Shown here: piece by piece, positions 20,614 to 58,504 of the stretch
Numbering within the stretch: the stretch's first letter is position 1
Layout of the letters: each line of letters begins with the position of its first letter
Assembly (NCBI GenBank): GCA_024653215.1
Contig: JANLFU010000010.1
Coordinates: 19,625 to 83,624 of the forward strand
From: Candidatus Saccharicenans sp.
Lineage (GTDB): Bacteria > Acidobacteriota > Aminicenantia > Aminicenantales > Saccharicenantaceae
DNA: 64,000 nt
Reading direction: 5' to 3'
The notes under the pieces: generated by a model
Database searches by the model: none
What the model was told of the DNA's origin: nothing
Seen by the model: the letters and a program-made list of their open reading frames with translations, nothing else
Program-made: the position numbers and the translations under genes

Positions 20614-21933
20614 TCAGAAACGGTAGTTTATGCCGACAGCCGCATCCCAGGTGCTCCTGTTATAGGTCACCGGGTAAGCGGGGAAGGGATATACCGAATC
20701 CTGCTTCTGGTATTTCTTGTAGAAAACGTAAATGGCCCCGAGTTCCAGGCTGAGCCGGTTAGTCAGGTTCAATTTCAGGCCGCCGCCAATGGTGTCGCTG
20801 CTGAGTTCATGGTTGATATCATCCTGGTATTCGGGAGCCAGGTCAAACTGGGTTCGGAGATAACCGGCACTCAGGGTAACCAGGCGGCTCAGGTCATATT
20901 CCAGCCCGGCTCCCAGCTCGTAGCTATTCTTATTTACCAGCGCTTCAGCCCCTTCCCAGTTGGCACTCCTGTCGAAATAGTAGCTGAAAGACAGGTAGCT
21001 GCGGAAAGCGGGAGTGAAGGCATAGCGCAGACCGGCTGACAGGATGGCCGGAATGTCATTCCGGAATTTCTCGCCGTCCGGGAACATTCCGGTGTCGTCG
21101 ACGGTCGTCTTATTGGTCAGTTCCAGCTTGGTGTTGAACTCATACTTCAGGCTGAAGGCCAGAGACTCGCTGGGCGTGAAGTTCAGGCTCAGGATGGGTG
21201 TAAAGCCGGTGCCGGTCTGCTTGACGTCGACTTGCTTGTCAGCCACCATGGCGGCATAACCCGTCTGGCCTACGGACATGAAGAAAGCATAGGCACTGAC
21301 CCAGGTGCCATTGGGGTTGATCATGACGTTGGTGATAGACCCCTCGTACTTGTTGGTGGCGGTGATAAGGCGAGCCCCGACGCCCAGGGCCAGGCTGGGG
21401 CTCAGGGCATAGGAGAAATTGAGCTGGTAGCCCATGAAGACCGATTCCCCCTTGAAGGCGATGTCCACGTCGTAGCCCGTGGTCGGCACCCCCATGTTGG
21501 AAATTAGCACGGGCAGGGTGGAAAAAGGAATCTCGAACGACGGCAGCCCGGTCTTGAAGTCGGCTGTTCCACCACCGGCATTGGGTCCCACCCCGAAGGA
21601 AATGGCCAGGTTACCCTTCTTATAAACCGCGTACAGGTTGGGGAAAAAGGGCACCCGGACTTCTCCCAGGTAATTGGGGTCGTTGAGCAGCGGGAAACCG
21701 TTAAGGATCTTCTTGTCCTGGGTGATTATCTGGTTGTGCAGCGAGAGGTGAAAGCCGTCTGATAGCTTGACCAGGCCGGCCGGGTTGTAGTAGACGGCAT
21801 CGACGTCGAGGGAAGCGTTTCGGGACAGGAGCCGGATGAAGGTAGCACTCTGGTTGTTGTTGGTCAGGATACCGGCCGTGGCACTTGAGGCCAGGAGGGC
21901 CAGAATCCCCAGAAGACACACCGTTTTCCTCAT
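20614..21933 (-). CDS. FadL/TodX-family outer-membrane channel for hydrophobic compounds
   Basis: Signal peptide, LTNNNQSA..R..SRNAS..DAVYYNPAGL hatch motif and C-terminal INYRF. Confidence 0.88.
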   Translation of the reverse strand: MRKTVCLLGILALLASSATAGILTNNNQSATFIRLLSRNASLDVDAVYYNPAGLVKLSDGFHLSLHNQIITQDKKILNGFPLLNDPNYLGEVRVPFFPNLYAVYKKGNLAISFGVGPNAGGGTADFKTGLPSFEIPFSTLPVLISNMGVPTTGYDVDIAFKGESVFMGYQLNFSYALSPSLALGVGARLITATNKYEGSITNVMINPNGTWVSAYAFFMSVGQTGYAAMVADKQVDVKQTGTGFTPILSLNFTPSESLAFSLKYEFNTKLELTNKTTVDDTGMFPDGEKFRNDIPAILSAGLRYAFTPAFRSYLSFSYYFDRSANWEGAEALVNKNSYELGAGLEYDLSRLVTLSAGYLRTQFDLAPEYQDDINHELSSDTIGGGLKLNLTNRLSLELGAIYVFYKKYQKQDSVYPFPAYPVTYNRSTWDAAVGINYRF

Positions 21934-22573: not shown

Positions 22574-22813
22574 ATGTCCGAACTTACACCAGATGTCACC
22601 CTCGATAACAGCGGGCTGGCCTGTCCCATGCCAATCATCAAGACCAAGAAGGCCATCGACGGGATGCAAGTCGGCCAGGTGCTGAAGATGATCGCCACCG
22701 ACCCCGGTTCCATCCCCGATGTCCAGGCCTGGGTCAGCAAGACCGGTCATGAACTTCTGAAGCATGAAACCGAGGGCAACAGGTTCATCTTCTACATCCG
22801 CAAGACAAAATAA
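22574..22813 (+). CDS. tusA: TusA-family sulfurtransferase (sulfur carrier)
   Basis: LDNSGLACPMPIIK (persulfide Cys), ATDPGS..DV.AW and FYIRK; RBS aggagg. Confidence 0.93.
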   Translation: MSELTPDVTLDNSGLACPMPIIKTKKAIDGMQVGQVLKMIATDPGSIPDVQAWVSKTGHELLKHETEGNRFIFYIRKTK

Positions 22814-23056
22814 CAGCCGTCAGGGAAGACCTGTCTTCCCCGGCCCTTAGCATAAAAGCCCCGGGCTGAAGGAGAGCTAAGAGTGGTGGGACTCAAGCGG
22901 GAGGCTTTTTTCGGAAAGCCGGTTAATCCCTCTCTGCCGGGAATATTTTTCAATCCGAACTATCCCACACGATACTTACCCCTTACCACCACAAACCATT
23001 TCAGCCACCCGTCTCGGAATTTAAGTCAAGCTAACTTCAAAAAAGGAGGATAAATA

Positions 23057-23530
23057 ATGCCTGAAGGAAAAAAGAGACTGGCCATCATCTGCCTGCACGG
23101 CAGTCTTGACGTGGCCTTTGCCACCTTCGTCCTGGCCACGGCCGGGGCCGCCATGGAAATGGAGACCGCCGTTTATTTTGCCTTCTACGGGCTGGAAGTC
23201 CTCAAGAAGGGGAAAATCAACAAGCTCAAGGTTTCACCGCTGGCCAACCCGGCCATGCCGGTGAAAATTCCCAACATCATTGCCATGCTGCCCGGGATGA
23301 CCGCCGCGGCCACGGCCATGATGAAATCCTGGATGAAAAAATCCAAGGTGGCCACCCTGGGCGAACTGCTGGACACGGCCCGGGAACTGGGCGTCAGGCT
23401 TATTGCCTGCCAGATGAGCATGGACGTCATGGGGATCAAGAAGGAAGACCTCATAGACCGGGTTGAAATCGGCGGGGCGGCTACCTTCCTGGAATTTGCC
23501 AGCCAGGATGCCATCACCCTGACCTTTTAG
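23057..23530 (+). CDS. DsrE2-like (DsrE/DsrF/DrsH family) sulfur-relay protein
   Basis: AMEMETAVYFAFYGL, LIACQMSMDVMGI (conserved Cys) and GGAATFL; strong RBS. Confidence 0.9.
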   Translation: MPEGKKRLAIICLHGSLDVAFATFVLATAGAAMEMETAVYFAFYGLEVLKKGKINKLKVSPLANPAMPVKIPNIIAMLPGMTAAATAMMKSWMKKSKVATLGELLDTARELGVRLIACQMSMDVMGIKKEDLIDRVEIGGAATFLEFASQDAITLTF

Positions 23531-23539
23531 GAGGAAGCC

Positions 23540-23908
23540 ATGGCCGACGATAAAATCCTGATCATCATGACCAGTGGCCCGGACACACCCCGGCGCTGTG
23601 CCACACCCTTTTTCTTTGCCACTCTGGCCACCGCTATGGATTATGATGTCACCATGTTCTTCACCATTGACGGAACCCTGCTGCTCAAGAAAGGTCTGGC
23701 CGATACAGTTTTCCCCAAGGAAGGAGGCAAATCGGTCGGCGAATTCCTGAAAGAGGCCATGGACTCCGGGGTCAAGATGACCGCCTGCACCGCTTCCCTC
23801 GAACTTCACGGCCTGAGCCCGGAAGACCTGATTCCCGAGGTCAAGATGGTCGGTGGAGCTTCCATGTGGCAGATGGCCGAGGAAAGTAAGACTGTCTTAA
23901 CTTTCTGA
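23540..23908 (+). CDS. DsrE-family protein (DsrE3-like sulfur carrier)
   Basis: TSGPDTPRRCATPFF..A.AMDYDV.MFFTIDG and GVKMTACTAS; two Cys. Confidence 0.87.
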   Translation: MADDKILIIMTSGPDTPRRCATPFFFATLATAMDYDVTMFFTIDGTLLLKKGLADTVFPKEGGKSVGEFLKEAMDSGVKMTACTASLELHGLSPEDLIPEVKMVGGASMWQMAEESKTVLTF

Positions 23909-23930
23909 GCGAATCAAAAAGGAGGAAACC

Positions 23931-24377
23931 ATGGCCATAATTCGCGGCTGTAACCTTCCCGAAGACCTCTACTATTACCCGGAAAAGCACCTGTGGCTAA
24001 AGCCGCTCGGTGGAAACCTCTTCCGTATCGGACTGACCCCCATCGCCGGAAAACTGGCCGGCGGTAAACTTAACGCAGTAACCATCAGGTCCAAGAACAT
24101 CGGCCAGGAAGTCCAGCATGGGAAAAGCCTGGCCACCCTGGAGAGCAGCAAGTACGTGGGTCCGGTGCCGGCTCCCATTACCGGCATCGTCAAGTCTGGA
24201 AACGACAGGCTGGCCGCCGACCCCAACCTGGTCATCAGCGACCCTTACGGCGAAGGCTGGGTGGCCGAGATCGAAGCCACGAAGTGGGACCAGGAAAAAG
24301 CTGCCCTGCTGACCGGGGCTGAAGGCCTGGCCGAATACGAAAAGAAACTGGCAGCGGCCGGGATCTCCTGCGGGTGA
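23931..24377 (+). CDS. LbpA-like lipoate-binding protein (GcvH fold)
   Basis: LPEDLYY..HLW, RIGLT, lipoyl-Lys motif LESSK74YVGPVPAPITG, and DPYGEGW. Terminal cysteines C7 and C147. No gcvT or gcvP in the window. Confidence 0.85.
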   Translation: MAIIRGCNLPEDLYYYPEKHLWLKPLGGNLFRIGLTPIAGKLAGGKLNAVTIRSKNIGQEVQHGKSLATLESSKYVGPVPAPITGIVKSGNDRLAADPNLVISDPYGEGWVAEIEATKWDQEKAALLTGAEGLAEYEKKLAAAGISCG

Positions 24378-24456
24378 TATTTTTTGGGTGCGCTGGAAGA
24401 TTAAAAATTAAAGTTTATAAATCGCGAAAAAATAATTCCTTCGCCAAGGAGGGCAA

Positions 24457-25608
24457 ATGAAGGAAAAAACGATTTATGAGCACTTGAGGGAAAAGGGGCT
24501 CTCCCGGCGGGACTTCATGAAACTCTGCGGCACCATTGCCGGTATGATGGGCCTGGAGTTCGTACCGCCGGTCAAAGCCCTGGGCAAAACACTCGGACCG
24601 AGCCCGGAAGAAGTGGTGGCTCAGGCCCTTAAGACCAAGCCGAAAGTTCCCATCATCTGGCTGGAGTTCCAGGACTGCGCCGGGTGCAGCGAAGCCATCT
24701 CCCGCTCCAGCTCTCCCCTTCTCAGCAACCTGGTCCTAAATGACATTGCCATCGAGTACCACGAAACCCTGATGGCTGCGGCCGGCTTCCAGGCCGAGAA
24801 GGCCAAGGAAGAATGCATGAAGAAATACTTCGGGAAATACGTGCTGGTGGTTGAGGGCAGCCCTACCCTGGCCGATGACGGCATCTACTGCACCGTGGCC
24901 GGAAAAAGTAACCTGGACCTGCTAAAGGAAGCTGCAGCCGGGGCTGCTGCCGTCATCGCCACCGGAAACTGCGCCTGCTTTGGCGGAATCCCGGCAGCCC
25001 ATCCCAACCCGACCAGGGCCGTCGGCGTGGCCGACCTCATCAAAGACAAACCCGTGGTCAACATACCGGGCTGCCCGGCCATTCCTGAAGTTACCACCGG
25101 AACCATACTCCATTTCCTCATCCTGGGCCAGTTGCCTGAGACTGACCAGCTGAAAAGGCCTTTGCCCTTCTATGGCCACACGGTTCACGACCACTGCCTG
25201 CGCCGGCCATTCTACGAAGCCGGAAAATTCGCCGGAAGCTTCGACGACGAAGGAGCCAGGAAAGGCTATTGTCTTTACCGACTCGGTTGCAAGGGCCCGA
25301 CCACTTACAATGCTTGCGCCGGCCTGAAGTGGGAACGCGGCCTTTCCTATCCCGTTCAATCCGGCCACCCCTGCCTCGGCTGTTCCGAGCCTCATTTCTG
25401 GGATGGCGGCGGCTTCTACCAGGGTCAGTCGGCTCCAATCGTACGGCTTGATAAAAGTTCCACGGCCACCCTGGTCGGAGTCGGCGTGGCGGCCGGGGCC
25501 GCCCTGGCTGGCCTCAACGCTGTCAAGAAGAGCCGGGCCAAAAAGGATCTGAAAAAAGATCAGTCTCAGGCCGCCGGGTCTGATCCCGGGTCAAAGAAGG
25601 AGGGCTGA
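24457..25608 (+). CDS. hynS: [NiFe]-hydrogenase small subunit (group 1; Tat-exported, C-terminal membrane anchor)
   Basis: SRRDFMK Tat motif, QDCAGCSE, GNCACFGG, PGCP, HDHC..CLYRLGCKGP and HPCLGCSE; hydrophobic C-tail. Confidence 0.95.
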   Translation: MKEKTIYEHLREKGLSRRDFMKLCGTIAGMMGLEFVPPVKALGKTLGPSPEEVVAQALKTKPKVPIIWLEFQDCAGCSEAISRSSSPLLSNLVLNDIAIEYHETLMAAAGFQAEKAKEECMKKYFGKYVLVVEGSPTLADDGIYCTVAGKSNLDLLKEAAAGAAAVIATGNCACFGGIPAAHPNPTRAVGVADLIKDKPVVNIPGCPAIPEVTTGTILHFLILGQLPETDQLKRPLPFYGHTVHDHCLRRPFYEAGKFAGSFDDEGARKGYCLYRLGCKGPTTYNACAGLKWERGLSYPVQSGHPCLGCSEPHFWDGGGFYQGQSAPIVRLDKSSTATLVGVGVAAGAALAGLNAVKKSRAKKDLKKDQSQAAGSDPGSKKEG

Positions 25609-25609
25609 G

Positions 25610-26287
25610 ATGAACTGGACGAATATCTTGAATTTCAGCCGCGGGCCACTGCTTCATGTGGCCATGATAATTTTCGTGGCCGGCCTGAGCTACCGGCTGG
25701 TCCGGGTTCTTTTGCTCGGCTGGGCGAGAGACAGGGCTAAGAACAAGGGCAGCAAGCTCTGGGGGGTAATCGTCAATTACCTGAAGGGCCTTTTCGTCCT
25801 GCCGTTTATTCCCTGGGTCAGGCGCACCTTCCGCCACAACGAGCTGACCTTTATCGCCGGCGGGCTGTTCCACCTCAGCCTGTTCCTGGTCCTGGTTTTC
25901 GGCACGGCCCATATTTTAGTCTGGAAGAGCCTCTGGGGTTTCGGCTGGAAGGGCCTGCCAACGCCCATCCTGGCTTTCTTCTCGGCCGCGGGCATAATTT
26001 CCATGATTGTCCTGCTGATAAACCGGCTCACCCACCCGGTGTTAAAAATGCTGACCAGGTTCCCGGTCTGGATAAACTGGCTGGTGGTTTTCCTGCCGAT
26101 GATAACCGGCTTCATCATGGCCAGGCACCTGTGGTTCAGGTACGAGGTGATTTTCAGCCTGCACCTGATTTCGGTCAGCCTGCTTCTAATCTGGGTTCCC
26201 TTCGGCCGCATCTCCCACTTCCTGTTTTACTTCTTTTCCAAGACCATCCACGGAGCCCAGGCTGGTAAGCGCGCGGTAACGCCCTGA
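25610..26287 (+). CDS. isp1: Isp1: NarI/DsrM-like di-heme cytochrome b membrane subunit
   Basis: 5 TM helices with paired His (FHLS..AHI; LHLIS..PFGRISHF); lies between hynS and an HdrD-like gene. Confidence 0.85.
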   Translation: MNWTNILNFSRGPLLHVAMIIFVAGLSYRLVRVLLLGWARDRAKNKGSKLWGVIVNYLKGLFVLPFIPWVRRTFRHNELTFIAGGLFHLSLFLVLVFGTAHILVWKSLWGFGWKGLPTPILAFFSAAGIISMIVLLINRLTHPVLKMLTRFPVWINWLVVFLPMITGFIMARHLWFRYEVIFSLHLISVSLLLIWVPFGRISHFLFYFFSKTIHGAQAGKRAVTP

Positions 26288-26301
26288 AAAGGAGGCAAGC
26301 C

Positions 26302-27567
26302 ATGAAAAGCCAGAAAACGCAATCAGCCATAAACACCTACCTTAAGGAGACAGGTGGCTGGGTGGCCAGTCAGCTTGAGGCCTGTACCCGCTGCGGCATC
26401 TGCGCCGAAGCCTGCCATTTCTACCAGGCCCTGGGCAATCCAGAATATGCTCCCATCTGGAAGCTGGAGCCGCTGCGCCGGGCCTATGAGCAGCGCTTCA
26501 CGGTGGCCGGCAAGCTGAAATTAGCCCTTGGCCTGGAGAAAAAGCTCGCCGACTCCGACCTGGAACACTGGAGCAAAATCGTCTACGAGGCCTGCACCGT
26601 CTGCAACAAGTGCGCCCATGTCTGCCCGATGGGCATCCAACTCGGGCCACTGATTCACGGGGTCAGAGCCGGGATGGCTGCGGCCGGAGTGGTGCCCGCG
26701 GACCTGGCCGAAGCCACGGAGAAGCAGAAAACCGTCGGCAGCCCGCTGGGGGTTACCGACGAAATGTGGCGGGAAAGAATCGACTGGATCACCGACGAAT
26801 GGGAAGCTCAAATACCAGTTGATAAGGCCGGGGCCGAGAGCCTGGTAGTTTTCACCTCAATTGAGCTTATGAAATTTCCGGATAACCTGGCCGCGGTGGC
26901 CAGGATTCTCAACAGGGCCGGAGAAAACTGGACGGTGAGCTCAACCGGCCGGGAAGTGGTTAACTTCGGCTACTTTGAAGCCGACGAGGAGCTGACCAGG
27001 CTTTTCATGTACCGGGTCTTCAAGGCGGCCGAGGAGCTGGGCGTCAAGCGGATCATCATCAGCGAATGCGGTCACGCCTACGACGCTTTTCGCTGGGCAG
27101 CACCCAACATGATGAAAGTTCCAAAGGGAGTGGAAATCGCCCACATCAGCGAGTACATCCACCAGCTCTGGAAGACCGGCCGGATCAAGCTCAAAGAAGG
27201 AGCCTTTGACGGGGAGACCATCACCTTCCACGACTCCTGCAAAATTCAGCGCCGCGGTGGCATCATCAAGCAGCCGCGGGAGCTGCTCAGGGTACTGGCT
27301 CCCAGGAGTTTCAAAGAAATGACGCCCAACAAGGAGCAGTCCCTGTGCTGCGGCGGCGGGGGCGGTGTCATCTCCATCAAGGAAGCCGACGCCAACCGCT
27401 ATGCCGTCTTCGAGATGAAAATTGAGCAGCTCCAGGAAGTCCAGGCCAGGGCCGTCTGCATGGTCTGCAGCAACTGCCGTTTGCAGTTCGTGGACAGCGT
27501 GGGGCATTTCAACCTGCCGGTAAAAGTCCACGGCCTGGCCGAGCTGGTTTCCAAGGCCCTGGTTTAA
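26302..27567 (+). CDS. isp2: Isp2: HdrD/DsrK-like Fe-S (hetero)disulfide reductase subunit
   Basis: Two [4Fe-4S] motifs (CTRCGICAEAC, CTVCNKCAHVCP), ECGH, and a CCG domain FHDSC..CCGGGGG..CSNC. Confidence 0.9.
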   Translation: MKSQKTQSAINTYLKETGGWVASQLEACTRCGICAEACHFYQALGNPEYAPIWKLEPLRRAYEQRFTVAGKLKLALGLEKKLADSDLEHWSKIVYEACTVCNKCAHVCPMGIQLGPLIHGVRAGMAAAGVVPADLAEATEKQKTVGSPLGVTDEMWRERIDWITDEWEAQIPVDKAGAESLVVFTSIELMKFPDNLAAVARILNRAGENWTVSSTGREVVNFGYFEADEELTRLFMYRVFKAAEELGVKRIIISECGHAYDAFRWAAPNMMKVPKGVEIAHISEYIHQLWKTGRIKLKEGAFDGETITFHDSCKIQRRGGIIKQPRELLRVLAPRSFKEMTPNKEQSLCCGGGGGVISIKEADANRYAVFEMKIEQLQEVQARAVCMVCSNCRLQFVDSVGHFNLPVKVHGLAELVSKALV

Positions 27568-27582
27568 GGAAAGGAGGGGAAA

Positions 27583-27903
27583 ATGGCATCCTTTAATCTT
27601 ACCCCGGTGGAAAAAGGAATCCTCAGGTGCCGTCACACCGGCCCCTTTACCCCTGAGGACATTCAATCCCTGACGGTTTTCTTCAGGGAATACCACGGCA
27701 AGCTGCTGATAGACCTCAGCGGAACTGACCCGTCCGAATGCCTGCGGCACATCAGGCACATGAGGCCGATCATGCCAACCGCGGCCATTTTCGGGGCCGA
27801 AATAGACCCCAAAATTCTGGAGATAGACCGCAGTTACTACGCCAACGAGGTGCGCTGGTTCCGGACCGAAAAAGAAGCCCTGGAATGGCTTCGCAACCAG
27901 TAA
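27583..27903 (+). CDS. Small hypothetical protein, STAS/SEC14 (SpoIIAA-like) fold suspected
   Basis: Strong RBS, tightly packed between isp2 and hynL; LLIDLS and C-terminal FRTEKEALEWL pattern. Confidence 0.7.
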   Translation: MASFNLTPVEKGILRCRHTGPFTPEDIQSLTVFFREYHGKLLIDLSGTDPSECLRHIRHMRPIMPTAAIFGAEIDPKILEIDRSYYANEVRWFRTEKEALEWLRNQ

Positions 27904-27918
27904 TGGGAGGAGGACAAA

Positions 27919-29658
27919 ATGGCTAATCGAATCGTCATCGATCCTATAACCAGGATAGAAGGTCACTTAAGGATTGAAGCCGCGATCGATGGGAACAACA
28001 CCATCACCGAGGCCTACTCGGCTGGAACCATGGTTCGCGGCATCGAAAACATCCTGAAGAAGCGCGACCCGCGCGATGCCTGGGCCTTTGCCCAGAGAAT
28101 CTGCGGGGTTTGCACCACGGTCCATGCCATTGCCTCCATCCGGGCGGTAGAAGACGCGCTAGGCATAAACATTCCTAAAGCAGCCAACCTGATGCGAAAC
28201 ATGATCATCGCCCAGCAGTACATCCATGACCACGTGATGCATTTCTACATCCTGCACGCCCTGGATTTCGTGGACGTGGTCAGTGCCCTGAAAGCTGACC
28301 CGAAGAAAACCTCGGACATCCAGCAGAGCATCTCCGGCTGGCCCAAATCCTCCCCGGCCTACTTTGCCGAGGTCCAGAAAAAGGTTCAGGCCATCGTCGA
28401 TAGCGGCCAGCTATCGCTTTTCAGCAATGGCTACTGGGGGCACCCGGCCTACAAGCTCCCGCCGGAAATCAACCTGCTGGGCGTGGCTCACTACCTGGAG
28501 TGCCTGGACTGGCAGTCACAGGTGACCAAGATCCACACCATCTTCGGCGGCAAGAACCCGCATCCCAACTTCGTGGTGGGAGGGGTGCCGCTACCCATTG
28601 ACATGAACTCGGACCAGGCCCTGAACGCCGAGAAGCTGGCGGTGATAGCCGATTCCATCAAGAGGATGAACGACTTCGTTGACCAGGTTTACCTGCCGGA
28701 CCTGCTGGCCGTGGCTCCCTATTACCTGGAATATGCGGCGGTCGGCGAAGGGTTGGGTAATTTCCTGGCCTGGGGGGAATTTCCTGAAGGGCAGCTCAAC
28801 GAAATTGATAAGCTGATTTTCCCCAGGGGTGTCATCGTCAACCGTGACCTGAAGAACGTTATCGTGCCCGACCCGAGAGATGCGGCCAGGATGAAAGAAT
28901 TCATCACCCATAGCTGGTATAAGTACAGCCAGGGCGACGAAACGGGCCTGTTTCCCTGGGAAGGCGAAACAGTCTTTAATTACACGGGTCCAAGACCGCC
29001 TTACGAATACCTCAACGTCGAGGGCAAGTATTCCTGGTTGAAATCACCCCGCTGGAACGAGCTGCCGATGGAAGTCGGCCCCCTGGCCCGGGTGCTGATT
29101 CTTTATGCCACGGGGCACAAGGAGACGGTTGCCCTGGTCAACGCCGTTCTGGAAAAGCTCAGGGCTCCGGTCAGCGCCGTGTTTTCGACGCTCGGACGGA
29201 CGGCGGCCAGGGCCATTGAGACCAAGGTCATCGCCGGGCTGCTTCAGAAGTTCTATGACGAGCTGGTGGCCGAGATTAAAGCCGGAAACACCGACACCTT
29301 CAACGACGAAAAATGGGAGCCCCGGACCTGGCCGAAGAAGGCGCTCGGTTTCGGCTATACCGAGGCGCCGCGCGGAGCCCTGGGGCACTGGGTGGTGATA
29401 GAGAACAGGAAAATCAAGAATTACCAGATAGTGGTGCCGACCACCTGGAATGCTTCGCCCCGCGACCACAGGAACCAGGCCGGCGCCTATGAGGCTTCGC
29501 TGGTCGGAACTAGGCTGGCCAACCCCGAACAGCCGCTGGAGATTCTACGGACGCTTCATTCCTTCGACCCGTGCCTGGCCTGCGCCGTGCACCTGGTCGA
29601 CACCAGCGGGAAGAAGGTCGGAGAAGCGGCCACCGGCTTTAACCTGGTTGTCCGCTGA
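27919..29658 (+). CDS. hynL: [NiFe]-hydrogenase large subunit (group 1; gene order indicates Isp-type group 1e)
   Basis: DPITRIEGH, L1 RICGVC, L2 SFDPCLACAVH, followed by a cleavable C-terminal extension. Confidence 0.96.
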   Translation: MANRIVIDPITRIEGHLRIEAAIDGNNTITEAYSAGTMVRGIENILKKRDPRDAWAFAQRICGVCTTVHAIASIRAVEDALGINIPKAANLMRNMIIAQQYIHDHVMHFYILHALDFVDVVSALKADPKKTSDIQQSISGWPKSSPAYFAEVQKKVQAIVDSGQLSLFSNGYWGHPAYKLPPEINLLGVAHYLECLDWQSQVTKIHTIFGGKNPHPNFVVGGVPLPIDMNSDQALNAEKLAVIADSIKRMNDFVDQVYLPDLLAVAPYYLEYAAVGEGLGNFLAWGEFPEGQLNEIDKLIFPRGVIVNRDLKNVIVPDPRDAARMKEFITHSWYKYSQGDETGLFPWEGETVFNYTGPRPPYEYLNVEGKYSWLKSPRWNELPMEVGPLARVLILYATGHKETVALVNAVLEKLRAPVSAVFSTLGRTAARAIETKVIAGLLQKFYDELVAEIKAGNTDTFNDEKWEPRTWPKKALGFGYTEAPRGALGHWVVIENRKIKNYQIVVPTTWNASPRDHRNQAGAYEASLVGTRLANPEQPLEILRTLHSFDPCLACAVHLVDTSGKKVGEAATGFNLVVR

Positions 29659-30020
29659 AGCTGCACACAATCTAGGTTTAAGAAGTGATTGGACGGCCAA
29701 GAGCTTGAAACGCCGGGACTGGCCCGTTAACCAGGTGAATCATAATTCCGGAGGAGTAAGAGCACAGACCGGGCACTGGCAACGGCAGATGATAGAAACG
29801 TTTGAAAAATTGAAGATATCTAACCGAAAAAGAACAAACGGCCCGGTTGGGGTTCCAGCCCTTCAGGGACAAGACGCTGTTCAGAAAACCGCCTTATTCC
29901 AGGACGGCCACAAATGGCAGGTAGCTGCTAACCTGGGTAAAACTGGCGTGCGGTCAGCTGTCCGGACCAGAAAGAAGCGGCAGTCACAACGTGTCGTCAT
30001 GGGGACGAAACCTATTAGAT

Positions 30021-30040
30021 ATATGAATGGTTATTCATAT
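30021..30040. promoter_or_regulatory. Palindromic operator ATATGAA-N6-TTCATAT (copy 1)
   Basis: atatgaa tggtta ttcatat, 37 nt upstream of the maturation-protease ATG. Confidence 0.7.
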
Positions 30041-30077
30041 GTCCTGAAACTGGCCGAATCTGAGGGCAGAAACTGAA

Positions 30078-30569
30078 ATGACCAAGAGAATTGTGGTGCT
30101 TGGAGTGGGAAACATCCTGAACCGGGATGAAGGAGCGGGAGTGCAGGCCCTAAAAGAACTGGAAAAAATTCTACCCGCTGGCCTGAAGCCGAAGGTTGAG
30201 CTGGTAGATGGCGGGGTGCTGGGGATGGACCTTCTCCCCTACGTGGAACGGGCCACTCACCTGCTCGTCCTGGATGCGGCGGATTTCCAGGGCCGGCCGG
30301 GAGAAATCCGGGAGTTTCCGGGAGGGGCGCTAAAAACATTTTTCTCAGGCAAGATTTCCTGGCACCAGCTCGGCTTCCAGGAGGTGCTGGAAGTAGCCCG
30401 GGTCAGAGGGCACTATCCGGGACAGGTTCACCTGATCGGCGTTCAGCCGGGGGACATGGAAGTCGGACTGGGCTTAAGCGAAGCTCTGGAGCTTTCCGTG
30501 AAGGACATGGCCAGAAGGGCCCTGGATATACTGAAAAACTGGCTCGAAGATACTGACCATGCAGGATAA
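30078..30569 (+). CDS. Hydrogenase maturation endopeptidase (HyaD/HybD family)
   Basis: VLGVGNILNRDEGAG, VDGGV.G, VLDA and SWHQ. Confidence 0.93.
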   Translation: MTKRIVVLGVGNILNRDEGAGVQALKELEKILPAGLKPKVELVDGGVLGMDLLPYVERATHLLVLDAADFQGRPGEIREFPGGALKTFFSGKISWHQLGFQEVLEVARVRGHYPGQVHLIGVQPGDMEVGLGLSEALELSVKDMARRALDILKNWLEDTDHAG

Positions 30570-30906
30570 ATTCCGGAGGATTACCCCTCAAATAAAAATG
30601 TTAACTTGCACCATCTACAGGTCCAGGACCAAGTACAGGAAACAGAAGAGTCACCATGCGCTTCAGGTTCAAGTGGCAGCAAGAATCCTGCCTGTGCGAA
30701 GTCTTAATCAAAGGCTTCTGGCCTTTACCAGATATTCAGCTCCAGAAACCCGAACTCTGAAGCCTGGATTGAGGCATTAATAAAACAAATTTCCGAGGGA
30801 TTGATTTATAAAACTAAATAAGGCAAAAAAGGCATTAATTACCAAAATGGGGCTAATCAAAAAACAAACGATAAATCATCTTAAGGACCTGGAAAGGAAA
30901 TAAAGG

Positions 30907-32007
30907 ATGGACGGGAATCATAGGAAAAGAATAAGGGGCATCGACCTGGGGGAAGTGCCGGCCGTTAGGTCGCAGACTTGCTACCATGCTGTCGGCTACG
31001 CCTTTGGACCCAAAACTCCTGATACCATCATCCTGGTCAGCCCCGCGAGTCCCTATGTCTGTGTCGGCTTCCACCAGGAAGCGGAGAGGGAAGTTGACCT
31101 GGAATACTGCCGGCAGGCCGGGCTGCCCGTCTACCGGCGCGAAGTCGGAGGCGGCGCTGTCTATCTCGACCGGAACCAGCTTTTCGTGCAGTGGATTTTC
31201 CACCCGGAAAGCCTGCCCCTCGAGCTTGAGGATAAATTCAGGTTCTACGTTGAGCCAATTATCCTCACCTACCGGGAGCTGGGAATTGAGGCCTCTTACC
31301 GCCCGGTTAATGACATCCACGTAGCCGGAAAGAAAATCGGAGGCACGGGCGCGGCCAGGATCGGCCAGGCGGACATCCTGGTCGGAAGTTTCATGTTTGA
31401 TTTTGATAAGAAAACGATGGCCAGGGTGCTCCGGGTTTCCTCAGAAAAGATGCGTGACAAGGTCTTCCAGAGCCTGGAGCAGTATATGACCACGATGAAA
31501 GAACTGTTGCCGGAACTTCCCGCCAGAGAGATTGTTAAGAGAATTTATCTGAATAAGGTGGCAGAACTGCTGGAAGCCGAAGTAGAGGCAGGCGGAATGT
31601 GCGAGGCAGAACTTCAAGAGGCGGAAAGGCTGGACCGCCTTTTCCAGAGCGAGGACTGGATTTTCCAGAAGGGACCGCTGCGCCGGCCTTCCGTCAAGAT
31701 CCACGAAGATGTCCACGTGCGCGAGGTGGATTATAAAGCTCCGGGCGGATTGATCAGGTTGACAGCCAGGATCAGGACGGAGGGCGGAAAACCGATCCTG
31801 GATTCGGTCTGGATTTCCGGCGACTTCACCGCCATTCCCAAGGAAGGTATATTCATCCTGGAAGATAGGCTGCGGGGTATTGCCATCGAGGAAAAAAGCA
31901 TCGGTGAAGCGGTCTGCCGGGCTCTTGGAGAATCGGGGCTGCAGTGTCCCGGACTGACAGAACAGAGCTGGATTTCTGCCCTGCTCAGGCTGACCGATTC
32001 CGGGTAA
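30907..32007 (+). CDS. Lipoate:protein ligase, catalytic + accessory domain fused (Lpl(AB), sLpl(AB)-like)
   Basis: VCVGFHQ..EVD, RREVGGGAVYLD and NDIHVAGKKIGGTG; C-terminal accessory domain KAPGGLIR...ISGDF. Confidence 0.9.
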   Translation: MDGNHRKRIRGIDLGEVPAVRSQTCYHAVGYAFGPKTPDTIILVSPASPYVCVGFHQEAEREVDLEYCRQAGLPVYRREVGGGAVYLDRNQLFVQWIFHPESLPLELEDKFRFYVEPIILTYRELGIEASYRPVNDIHVAGKKIGGTGAARIGQADILVGSFMFDFDKKTMARVLRVSSEKMRDKVFQSLEQYMTTMKELLPELPAREIVKRIYLNKVAELLEAEVEAGGMCEAELQEAERLDRLFQSEDWIFQKGPLRRPSVKIHEDVHVREVDYKAPGGLIRLTARIRTEGGKPILDSVWISGDFTAIPKEGIFILEDRLRGIAIEEKSIGEAVCRALGESGLQCPGLTEQSWISALLRLTDSG

Positions 32008-32368: not shown

Positions 32369-32863
32369 ATGATCAGCAAAAAGATGGAAGAAGCCATCAA
32401 CAAACAGATCAACGAGGAGATGTATTCGGCCTATCTTTATCTGTCGATGGCCGGGTACTTTGCCGAGCAGAACCTGATGGGTTTCCACAACTGGCTGTAT
32501 GTTCAGTACCACGAAGAGCTGGAGCATGCCGAGAAATTCTACAAGTATCTGGTGGAACGCGGCGGGCAGGTCAGGCTGGCCGCTATCAAGGAACCCGAGC
32601 ACACCTGGAAAAACGCCAGGGATGCCTTCGAGGCGGTCCTCAAGCACGAACGGCACATTACCGGCAGGATTAACGAGCTGGTGGACATAGCCGAAGCAGA
32701 AAAGGACCGGGCTTCTTTCGCCATGCTGCAGTGGTTCGTCAACGAGCAGGTCGAAGAAGAAGCTAACGCCCAGGACATCCTGTCCAAGCTGGAGATGGTG
32801 GGCGACCACAAGCAGGGCCTGCTGATGATCGACCGGGCCCTGGCCGAACGGAAAAAAGGCTGA
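32369..32863 (+). CDS. ftnA: Non-heme ferritin
   Basis: QINEEMYSAYLY, EELEHA, HERHIT..IN and LQWFVNEQVEEE ferroxidase-centre motifs. Confidence 0.95.
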   Translation: MISKKMEEAINKQINEEMYSAYLYLSMAGYFAEQNLMGFHNWLYVQYHEELEHAEKFYKYLVERGGQVRLAAIKEPEHTWKNARDAFEAVLKHERHITGRINELVDIAEAEKDRASFAMLQWFVNEQVEEEANAQDILSKLEMVGDHKQGLLMIDRALAERKKG

Positions 32864-58476: not shown

Positions 58477-58504
58477 CAATATATGAACATCCATTCATAT
58501 ATTG
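58477..58504. promoter_or_regulatory. Palindromic operator ATATGAA-N6-TTCATAT (copy 3, 11-6-11)
   Basis: caatatatgaa catcca ttcatatattg, upstream of the class V PLP gene. Confidence 0.72.

Follow-up and report, generated by a model that had tools for sequence, protein, structure and literature searches.

The gene cluster analysed here raises the question of where an Isp-type [NiFe] hydrogenase delivers its electrons when its genes stand in one run with those of sulfur carriers and a lipoyl protein. For the acceptor of the Hdr-like subunit Isp2, a 2024 paper offers no more than a model-based suggestion, NAD+ or ferredoxin. The cluster is located on a stretch of 64,000 nucleotides from Candidatus Saccharicenans sp. 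(Aminicenantia; contig JANLFU010000010.1), hereafter the window, and comprises eleven co-oriented open reading frames (ORFs) at positions 22574-32007 of the + strand (Table 1). With a probability of roughly 0.55, the operon encodes an H2-driven reductase of carrier-bound sulfane sulfur, in which, judged from gene content and a predicted protein complex, electrons from H2 would pass via Isp1 and Isp2 to the lipoylated carrier LbpA and H2S would be released. The broader claim that Isp2 reduces lipoyl-LbpA in some form is the safer of the two and appears probable.

Organization and conservation of the operon

Gene families were assigned by profile-family scans of the window ORFs. These bore out the eleven-gene order from tusA to the lipoate ligase gene that had been given in a first-pass annotation of the DNA, with families as named there. 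The intergenic gaps from tusA to the ligase gene measured 243, 9, 22, 79, 1, 14, 15, 15, 419 and 337 nt, including the 79 nt previously noted between the end of the carrier gene and hynS. The genes from dsrE2 to hynL are tightly packed (1-79 nt), with tusA, hupD and the ligase gene set apart by the three longest gaps. The best match of HynL in the PDB was 3MYR chain B (813 bits vs 708 for the next), which we take to be the Isp-type hydrogenase of Allochromatium (A. vinosum). The genes isp1 and isp2 lie between those of the small and large hydrogenase subunits, the arrangement by which Isp-type hydrogenases are defined (PMC11018855; statements drawn here and below from cited work refer to the available parts of its text). 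Gene arrangement and closest PDB match together point to an Isp-type (group 1e) hydrogenase.

Table 1. Genes of the run from tusA to the lipoate ligase gene, with their positions in the window
Gene product	Position	Strand	Evidence and remarks
TusA sulfur carrier, 79 aa	22574..22813	+	PF01206 (E 9.5e-26); single Cys17 in CPxP motif
DsrE2-like sulfur transferase, 157 aa, Cys118	23057..23530	+	PF13686 (E 9e-46); NF047629 157.8 bits (cut-off 210, below)
DsrE3-like sulfur transferase, 122 aa	23540..23908	+	PF02635
LbpA-like lipoyl carrier, 148 aa	23931..24377	+	Lys74 in ESSKYVGP; Cys7; Cys147; pI 6.7; GCV_H family match
HynS, [NiFe] hydrogenase small subunit, Tat signal	24457..25608	+	TIGR00391, TIGR01409; best PDB match 3MYR chain A
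Isp1, DsrM/TmcC-like membrane protein	25610..26287	+	TmcC/HmcE matches below cut-off
Isp2, DsrK/TmcB/HdrD-like	26302..27567	+	DsrK/HmcF/TmcB-like matches with CCG; two ferredoxin-type motifs
STAS/SpoIIAA-like ORF, 106 aa	27583..27903	+	PF11964 below cut-off
HynL, [NiFe] hydrogenase large subunit, probable Isp (group 1e) type	27919..29658	+	PF00374 (NiFeSe_Hases)
HupD/HyaD-type maturation protease (HycI/HupD)	30078..30569	+	TIGR00072 above cut-off
Lipoate:protein ligase, sLpl(AB) type as in sHdr clusters	30907..32007	+	PF21948 (LplA-B_cat), LplB domain

The run from tusA to the ligase gene was kept in 18 of 22 genome loci, the remaining four stopping at a contig edge, and the gene order of the eleven-gene run is beyond chance. 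The small SpoIIAA-like ORF is conserved where present but dispensable: of 19 loci spanning isp2-hynL, three lack it. Among 80 metagenome loci, a close carrier (at least 57% identity) was identified in 15, followed by hynS in 13 and by a contig edge in two. Of 151 Aminicenantia genomes sampled, 14 yielded the carrier, and these same 14 were also the ones with an Isp2 of 62% identity or more, encoded adjacent to the carrier; another 53 genomes of this sample contained only an Isp2 paralogue of 31-37% identity. In a sample of 401 Chloroflexota genomes a close Isp2 was detected in seven, with a close carrier upstream in each, one of them cut by the contig end. Close carrier and close Isp2 were thus found side by side in the same 21 genomes. 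A wider sample of 401 Acidobacteriota genomes resulted in four carrier matches, all from Aminicenantia, and none outside this group. The unvarying core of the loci was dsrE3-lbp-hynS-isp1-isp2-hynL, and dsrE3 adjoined the carrier gene in every locus whose contig extends upstream of the carrier. Since related genomes are not independent, these counts indicate that the operon was retained as a whole in two phyla (at least two lineages) rather than 21 separate events. The synteny that the first-pass annotation had proposed to search for in other genomes is therefore conserved across two phyla, as sampled in Aminicenantia and Chloroflexota. Eubacteriales were considered as a third phylum based on three records so labelled that carry the run, and were rejected, as the two that were placed in trees grouped with Aminicenantia rows.

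A regulator with HTH_17 and PocR domains precedes several Chloroflexota copies of the operon (L206:6143-6934, family-scanned; also L207, L208 and L210). The regulators at L207, L208, L210 and L265 were judged by sequence likeness, and one of these precedes a unit of the TusA type described below.

The lipoyl carrier and its ligase

The carrier resembles LbpA rather than the H protein of glycine cleavage (GcvH), as had been proposed from the DNA alone; its lipoyl-lysine together with two terminal cysteines, and its isoelectric point (pI), point this way. Lys74, Cys7 and Cys147 were invariant in 38 aligned rows. Two terminal cysteines are a hallmark of LbpA (PMC6067878), and both were present in 25 of 25 Isp-linked carriers, with the C-terminal cysteine in none of 10 GcvH proteins. 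The whole-protein pI of 6.7, compared with 4.7 for GcvH of the same genome, is in agreement with the lower acidity than GcvH that serves as an LbpA criterion (10.64898/2026.10.01.755906); four GcvH-like extra rows were left out of the pI and cysteine counts. Against the GcvH model the carrier scored 64.6 bits, below the cut-off of 115.85, and the genome's own GcvH (contig C22) 161.6. In a quick tree of 148 columns, with no named reference LbpA among its rows, the Isp-linked carriers formed one clade (SH-aLRT 99), four OsmC-linked proteins included, which was placed among carriers from sHdr loci and apart from GcvH with moderate support (SH-aLRT 82-91). The view of the carrier as an orphan GcvH was rejected, since a separate GcvH, LipA and a second protein of the ligase family are encoded in the genome.

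An OsmC-like gene lies directly 5' of a carrier gene of the same clade at L040:9573-10444, L043 and L047, where the carriers mostly lack the terminal cysteines. OsmC-like protein and lipoyl carrier form a possible pair for lipoyl-dependent peroxide reduction.

With the main ligases of 12 type II sHdr loci the ligase shared 46-56% identity, and in a tree that contained no canonical E. coli-type ligase it fell into a 23-row clade (SH-aLRT 99) together with 10 of those 12. It has fused A and B domains, as sLpl(AB) does, and clade and domain structure agree with the earlier assignment to the sLpl(AB) type of sHdr clusters. Genes similar to lipS1/lipS2 were present at two Chloroflexota loci; BLAST searches identified no LipS1/S2 in the Saccharicenans genome, the 91.8% completeness of which bounds all genome-wide negatives reported here. 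About a dozen Chloroflexota genomes also had sHdr-like clusters of type II containing paired lbpA and ligase genes (L211-L222, with only L220 family-checked).

Isp2 and its predicted complex with LbpA

Isp1 contains four candidate heme ligands, His88, His101, His185 and His203, which we infer to bind two b hemes. Isp2 has one full five-cysteine CCG site (C313, C349, C350, C389 and C392) and an ECGH motif in which C256 and H258 are both invariant. Its C-terminal part folds like HdrB (Z 20-21, root-mean-square deviation 2.5-2.7 A over about 233 residues), and it scored 224.7 bits on the DsrK model NF045796, below the cut-off of 400. In a cryo-electron microscopy study of DsrMKJOP, the available text of which makes no mention of Isp or LbpA, the role of sulfur relay was assigned to Cys329 of DsrK, His331 and Glu292 were placed in the active site, Phe258 was identified as a contact to DsrC and Asp500 as a DsrK-specific ligand (10.64898/2026.08.25.746951). 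Alignment indicated that the counterparts of Cys329, His331 and Glu292 are kept in Isp2 as Cys256, His258 and Glu218. Met190 of Isp2 shares a column with a conserved Phe of DsrK, equated with Phe258 by spacing (67-69 vs 71 residues before the cysteine) in DsrK-like database proteins, not in the Archaeoglobus sequence.

Modelling of Isp2 with the carrier, suggested in the first-pass annotation, resulted in a predicted complex with a score of 0.65, compared with 0.00 for the best control; in calibration, which is roughly applicable here, 116 of 157 solved pairs attained the score mark, as did 2 of 215 mismatched ones. The prediction runs agreed in at least 95% of contacts, with a pLDDT of 90 for the partner. 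On the carrier side the predicted interface comprised residues 73-78 (the Lys74 hairpin), 65-69 and 53, and on the Isp2 side residues 159-166, 190-194 and 394-401, the last of these stretches following directly after Cys392. The tightest predicted contacts were those of Y75-V76-G77-P78 of the carrier, where GcvH of the same genome has S-V-S-D. LbpA is predicted to bind with its lipoyl-lysine hairpin at the entrance to the active site of Isp2, and the predicted docking loop of Isp2 aligns with the DsrK loop contacting DsrC. Searches of PDB sequences found neither DsrK nor LbpA.

The predicted docking residues R159, M190 and L394 were present in all 37 Isp rows. Rows of DsrC-linked homologs (n=19) mostly had T159 and D394, and those of arsR-dsrE2-tusA-M-K units (n=12) mostly Q159 and a shorter loop. 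The predicted docking residues are absent from more distant Isp2-like proteins, among them P0125 with its Pseudomonadota members, and LbpA as a partner may therefore not carry over to model organisms. Two further kinds of locus bear on this comparison. Metagenome loci L051:3679-7952 and L052:6099-10441 contain a hydrogenase-free run, arsR-tusA-dsrE2-dsrE3-dsrM-like-dsrK-like-lbpA, and a third, short one (L050) contains dsrK-like-lbpA. The K subunit of this variant is 35% identical to Isp2, was placed on the DsrK/TmcB side of a tree from which sixteen near-duplicate rows had been dropped, and retains R159, M190 and L394; LbpA appears here to be paired with a second DsrK-like lineage. The other is a recurring unit, dsrE2-tusA-dsrM-like-dsrK-like, often preceded by arsR, the fetched stretches of which contain neither LbpA nor DsrC nor a hydrogenase (L257-L265, from G021, G533, G373, G267, G233, G260, G163, G278 and G170). 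Its K subunits formed a clade of their own (SH-aLRT 100), and TusA may be their substrate.

Genomic context and proposed mechanism

Only three CCG proteins are encoded in the genome, and tblastn searches with type I and type II subunits gave no homologs of sHdrA, B1, H or C1 in it. Likewise, no match to the sulfite-reductase domain PF01077 (DsrAB), no E2 lipoyl domain, no MenA-like or futalosine gene and no Psr/Sre-like molybdoenzyme were found in the genome, the two matches to the last sitting in hydrogenase-type clusters. A separate gcvT-gcvH-gcvPA-gcvPB operon with its own GcvH is present elsewhere, and dihydrolipoyl dehydrogenase, LipA and a second protein of the ligase family are encoded as well; together these would cover glycine cleavage. 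The first-pass annotation had listed sHdr, gcvT/gcvP, 2-oxoacid dehydrogenase, dsrAB and dsrC genes as missing from the window. Outside the window sHdr and DsrAB were not found either in this 91.8%-complete genome, whereas the gcv operon and an orphan DsrC are present there. No sHdr was found that might use the carrier, and glycine cleavage is equipped with its own GcvH and LipA. The other hydrogenases of the genome look like groups 3 and 4, judged by neighbouring genes as read from ORFs. A tandem rhodanese with a signal-peptide-like N-terminus (G000:C2:20626-21531) is a candidate periplasmic polysulfide carrier.

According to the mechanism we propose, HynSL would oxidise H2 at the periplasmic side and electrons would cross the membrane via the hemes of Isp1 to the [4Fe-4S] clusters of Isp2. 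TusA, DsrE2 and DsrE3 would gather zero-valent sulfur as persulfides and hand it over to the lipoyl arm. In the DsrE3-like protein Cys83 was invariant and Cys20 nearly invariant in a 12-row alignment including DsrE3 proteins of sHdr clusters. The lipoyl arm would reach Cys256 and the non-cubane cluster, where the S-S bond would be cleaved with release of H2S, lipoyl-LbpA thereby filling for Isp2 the place of DsrC for DsrMK. With proton uptake in the cytoplasm, the reaction would therefore separate charge. Based on textbook redox potentials, the span from H2 to S0/HS- is 114-262 mV and that from H2 to plain lipoamide 6-124 mV; the former can pay for inward electron transfer under many conditions, whereas the latter mostly cannot. 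Isp-type hydrogenases have been linked to H2-dependent S0 reduction, usually mediated by a sulfur reductase (PMC10892978, PMC11018855, PMC11772811). The genome search found no Sre/Psr-type enzyme that would take the electrons of the hydrogenase, which is one point in favour of the mechanism proposed here.

Several observations weigh against sulfane-sulfur reduction on LbpA. The genes tusA and dsrE2 are absent beside the carrier gene in two of the seven Chloroflexota loci, the ligase gene is outside the fetched stretch at one, and no YeeE-family sulfur importer was found in the Saccharicenans genome. Four OsmC-linked carriers, mostly without both cysteines, nest inside the Isp-linked clade. The complex prediction covered the carrier as the sole candidate partner of Isp2, in place of a competition with DsrC, TusA, DsrE or GcvH, and proteins closely related to a genuine partner often pass it (10 of 12 in the test of the tool). 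Residues shared between Isp2 and the K subunit of the hydrogenase-free variant show a weak excess at the interface (2 of 3 positions, compared with 8 of 50 elsewhere; Fisher p of 0.09), and since the two K rows are 90% identical they represent one event. Isp2 has a cysteine, Cys392 (37 of 37 rows), at the position of Cys234 of HdrB, which in reductive DsrK is occupied by Asp500. When H2 is low, the span is possibly too small to drive electrons against the membrane potential. Sequence does not reveal the direction of electron flow, and LbpA acts oxidatively in the systems known so far (PMC6067878).

Alternative substrates and directions

The alternative that survives best, unlikely as we consider it, is that Isp2 reduces the plain lipoyl disulfide. 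LbpA would then be an H2-regenerated, protein-bound dithiol electron carrier rather than a sulfur carrier, with the task of stripping persulfides from TusA/DsrE, of peroxide or sulfane detoxification, or of NAD+ reduction via dihydrolipoyl dehydrogenase, which the genome encodes. Docking and co-occurrence are the same evidence for this as for sulfane-sulfur reduction, and Cys392 in place of Asp, as in Hdr, fits plain disulfide cleavage equally well. The nesting of the OsmC-linked carriers and the dispensability of TusA and DsrE2 in two Chloroflexota loci also agree with it. It is disfavoured by the H2/lipoamide span, which is too small against the membrane potential at low H2, and by the constant adjacency of DsrE3 wherever the contig extends upstream of the carrier.

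Reduction of carrier-bound sulfur also has to be weighed against flow in the opposite direction, with electrons from dihydrolipoyl groups or sulfide on LbpA passing through Isp2 and Isp1 to HynSL and H2 evolution as a membrane-potential-driven sink of a fermenter. The oxidative nature of known LbpA systems and the reversibility of an Isp-type hydrogenase (PMC10892978) agree with outward flow, which the membrane potential would favour. However, it would cost proton-motive force although group 3- and group 4-like hydrogenases exist in the genome, and it would leave three sulfur carriers without a sink, because no sulfite-forming enzyme was found in the genome; we regard it as improbable.

The published model for other Isp hydrogenases (PMC11018855, PMC11772811), applied to this operon, would have Isp1 reduce menaquinone for another terminal reductase, or Isp2 reduce ferredoxin or NAD+, with the carriers in a side role such as providing sulfur for the Fe-S sites or repairing them. 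A UbiA-family gene was present in 12 of 12 genus relatives, the four tested being MenA-like and below the cut-off. Against this route stand the lack of any detected MenA-like or futalosine gene or Sre/Psr in the Saccharicenans genome and the intact CCG site and relay cysteine of Isp2, and it seems slightly less credible again than outward flow. As to Fe-S assembly, a hydrogenase cluster on a plasmid of Methylovirgula sp. HY1 (L268:7917-14204) has an Isp2-like gene upstream of the small-subunit gene and no sulfur carriers nearby, and assembly therefore does not require carriers in general.

The Saccharicenans genome also encodes an orphan DsrC that has both C-terminal cysteines (G000:C22:243242-243562). 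Its gene stands alone after a sensor-kinase-like gene, without a DsrK-like neighbour, and DsrC was also found in all 10 other genomes tested. DsrC is the established substrate of DsrK (PMC10861901). That it is also the substrate of Isp2, with LbpA serving something else, is nevertheless the least probable of the alternatives, and comparative data speak against it: in relatives DsrC stands beside a separate DsrMK-like pair (the 31-37% Isp2 paralogue) in 13 of 16 fetched paralogue loci, G002, G003, G004 and G130 contain this unit as well as the Isp operon, DsrC is kept in the genus members G074 and G076, in which neither Isp2 nor the carrier was found, and the DsrC-linked paralogues have other residues at the docking positions. 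Units of dsrM-like, dsrK(TmcB)-like and dsrC genes are common in Aminicenantia (L142-L153, L155, L157, L164 and L165).

Relation to known systems

In its proposed mode of action the operon resembles DsrMK with DsrC, and its carrier set is that of sHdr, but it belongs to neither system. All of its parts are known; no description of their wiring was found in the literature searches given below. With the Isp-type (group 1e) HynS-Isp1-Isp2-HynL of Thiocapsa/Allochromatium and the archaeal group 1g enzymes it has in common the gene order, a Tat-exported small subunit, a b-type membrane subunit and an Hdr-like Isp2; it differs in forming one run with genes for TusA, DsrE proteins, LbpA and ligase and in that no Sre/Dsr partner was found. 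It shares with the sHdr-LbpA pathway (types I and II) the TusA/DsrE2/DsrE3/sLpl(AB) carrier set, a two-cysteine LbpA and a ligase of the type II clade. In contrast to that pathway, no sHdr subunit was found, a single LbpA of its own clade replaces the pair, and LipS1/S2 were not found in this genome, though detected at the two Chloroflexota loci. With a membrane hydrogenase module as catalytic partner and an anaerobe as host, a reductive direction is likely, unlike in sHdr. The single non-cubane site, the ECGH relay cysteine and histidine and a membrane cytochrome b partner are common to DsrMK(JOP) with DsrC trisulfide, TmcBC and HmcEF, and a protein-bound sulfur substrate is predicted at the equivalent loop. 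Unlike in DsrMK/DsrC, no DsrAB, DsrJOP or adjacent DsrC was found, a cysteine takes the place of Asp500, a lipoyl protein is the carrier, and the operon itself also encodes the electron donor.

This arrangement was not found in literature searches, which mostly exclude subscription journals. Term searches of the available text of PMC10332631, PMC11094781, PMC10504309, PMC10861901 and PMC13490349 did not find it either, and the supplementary gene-cluster tables of PMC10332631 and PMC11094781 could list such loci. More tentatively, and at somewhat less than even odds, lipoylated LbpA would be a true substrate of an enzyme of the DsrK/HdrD type and the operon a self-contained H2:sulfur respiratory loop without Psr/Sre, Dsr or sHdr. 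It would then belong to a family of DsrMK-like modules found among uncultured anaerobes, in which carriers are interchangeable (DsrC; TusA-DsrE2; TusA-DsrE2-DsrE3-LbpA) and the docking loop varies with the carrier. The operon supplies a candidate acceptor for Isp2, a predicted docking surface and residues to mutate, and its carrier proteins are of a size suited to expression. If the proposal is true, H2-driven sulfur reduction via a hydrogenase-docked lipoyl carrier is an undescribed route, lipoate acquires a function in reductive sulfur respiration, the opposite of the one it has in sHdr, and common Aminicenantia and Chloroflexota of sediments and digesters that lack the usual marker genes make sulfide from H2 and S0. 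Such a capacity would be missed by annotation pipelines, as these label the carrier 'glycine cleavage H protein'.

Flanking and regulatory sequences

The operon is flanked by a divergent gene for an outer-membrane beta-barrel protein (20614-21933, -) and a ferritin gene (32369-32863, +). Sequencing cover over operon and flanks was flat in four runs, which were judged to be probably DNA and are thus uninformative on expression. A scan of promoters and terminators gave counts close to chance (8 vs 4.8 and 20 vs 15.8), and a repeat search upstream of tusA gave no telling repeat. Upstream of hupD, a palindrome, ATATATGAA-N-TTCATAT, was identified at window positions 30018-30041, and the same palindrome occurs at a second site, 58479-58503. 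The genes for HupD and the ligase may be regulated apart from the structural genes.

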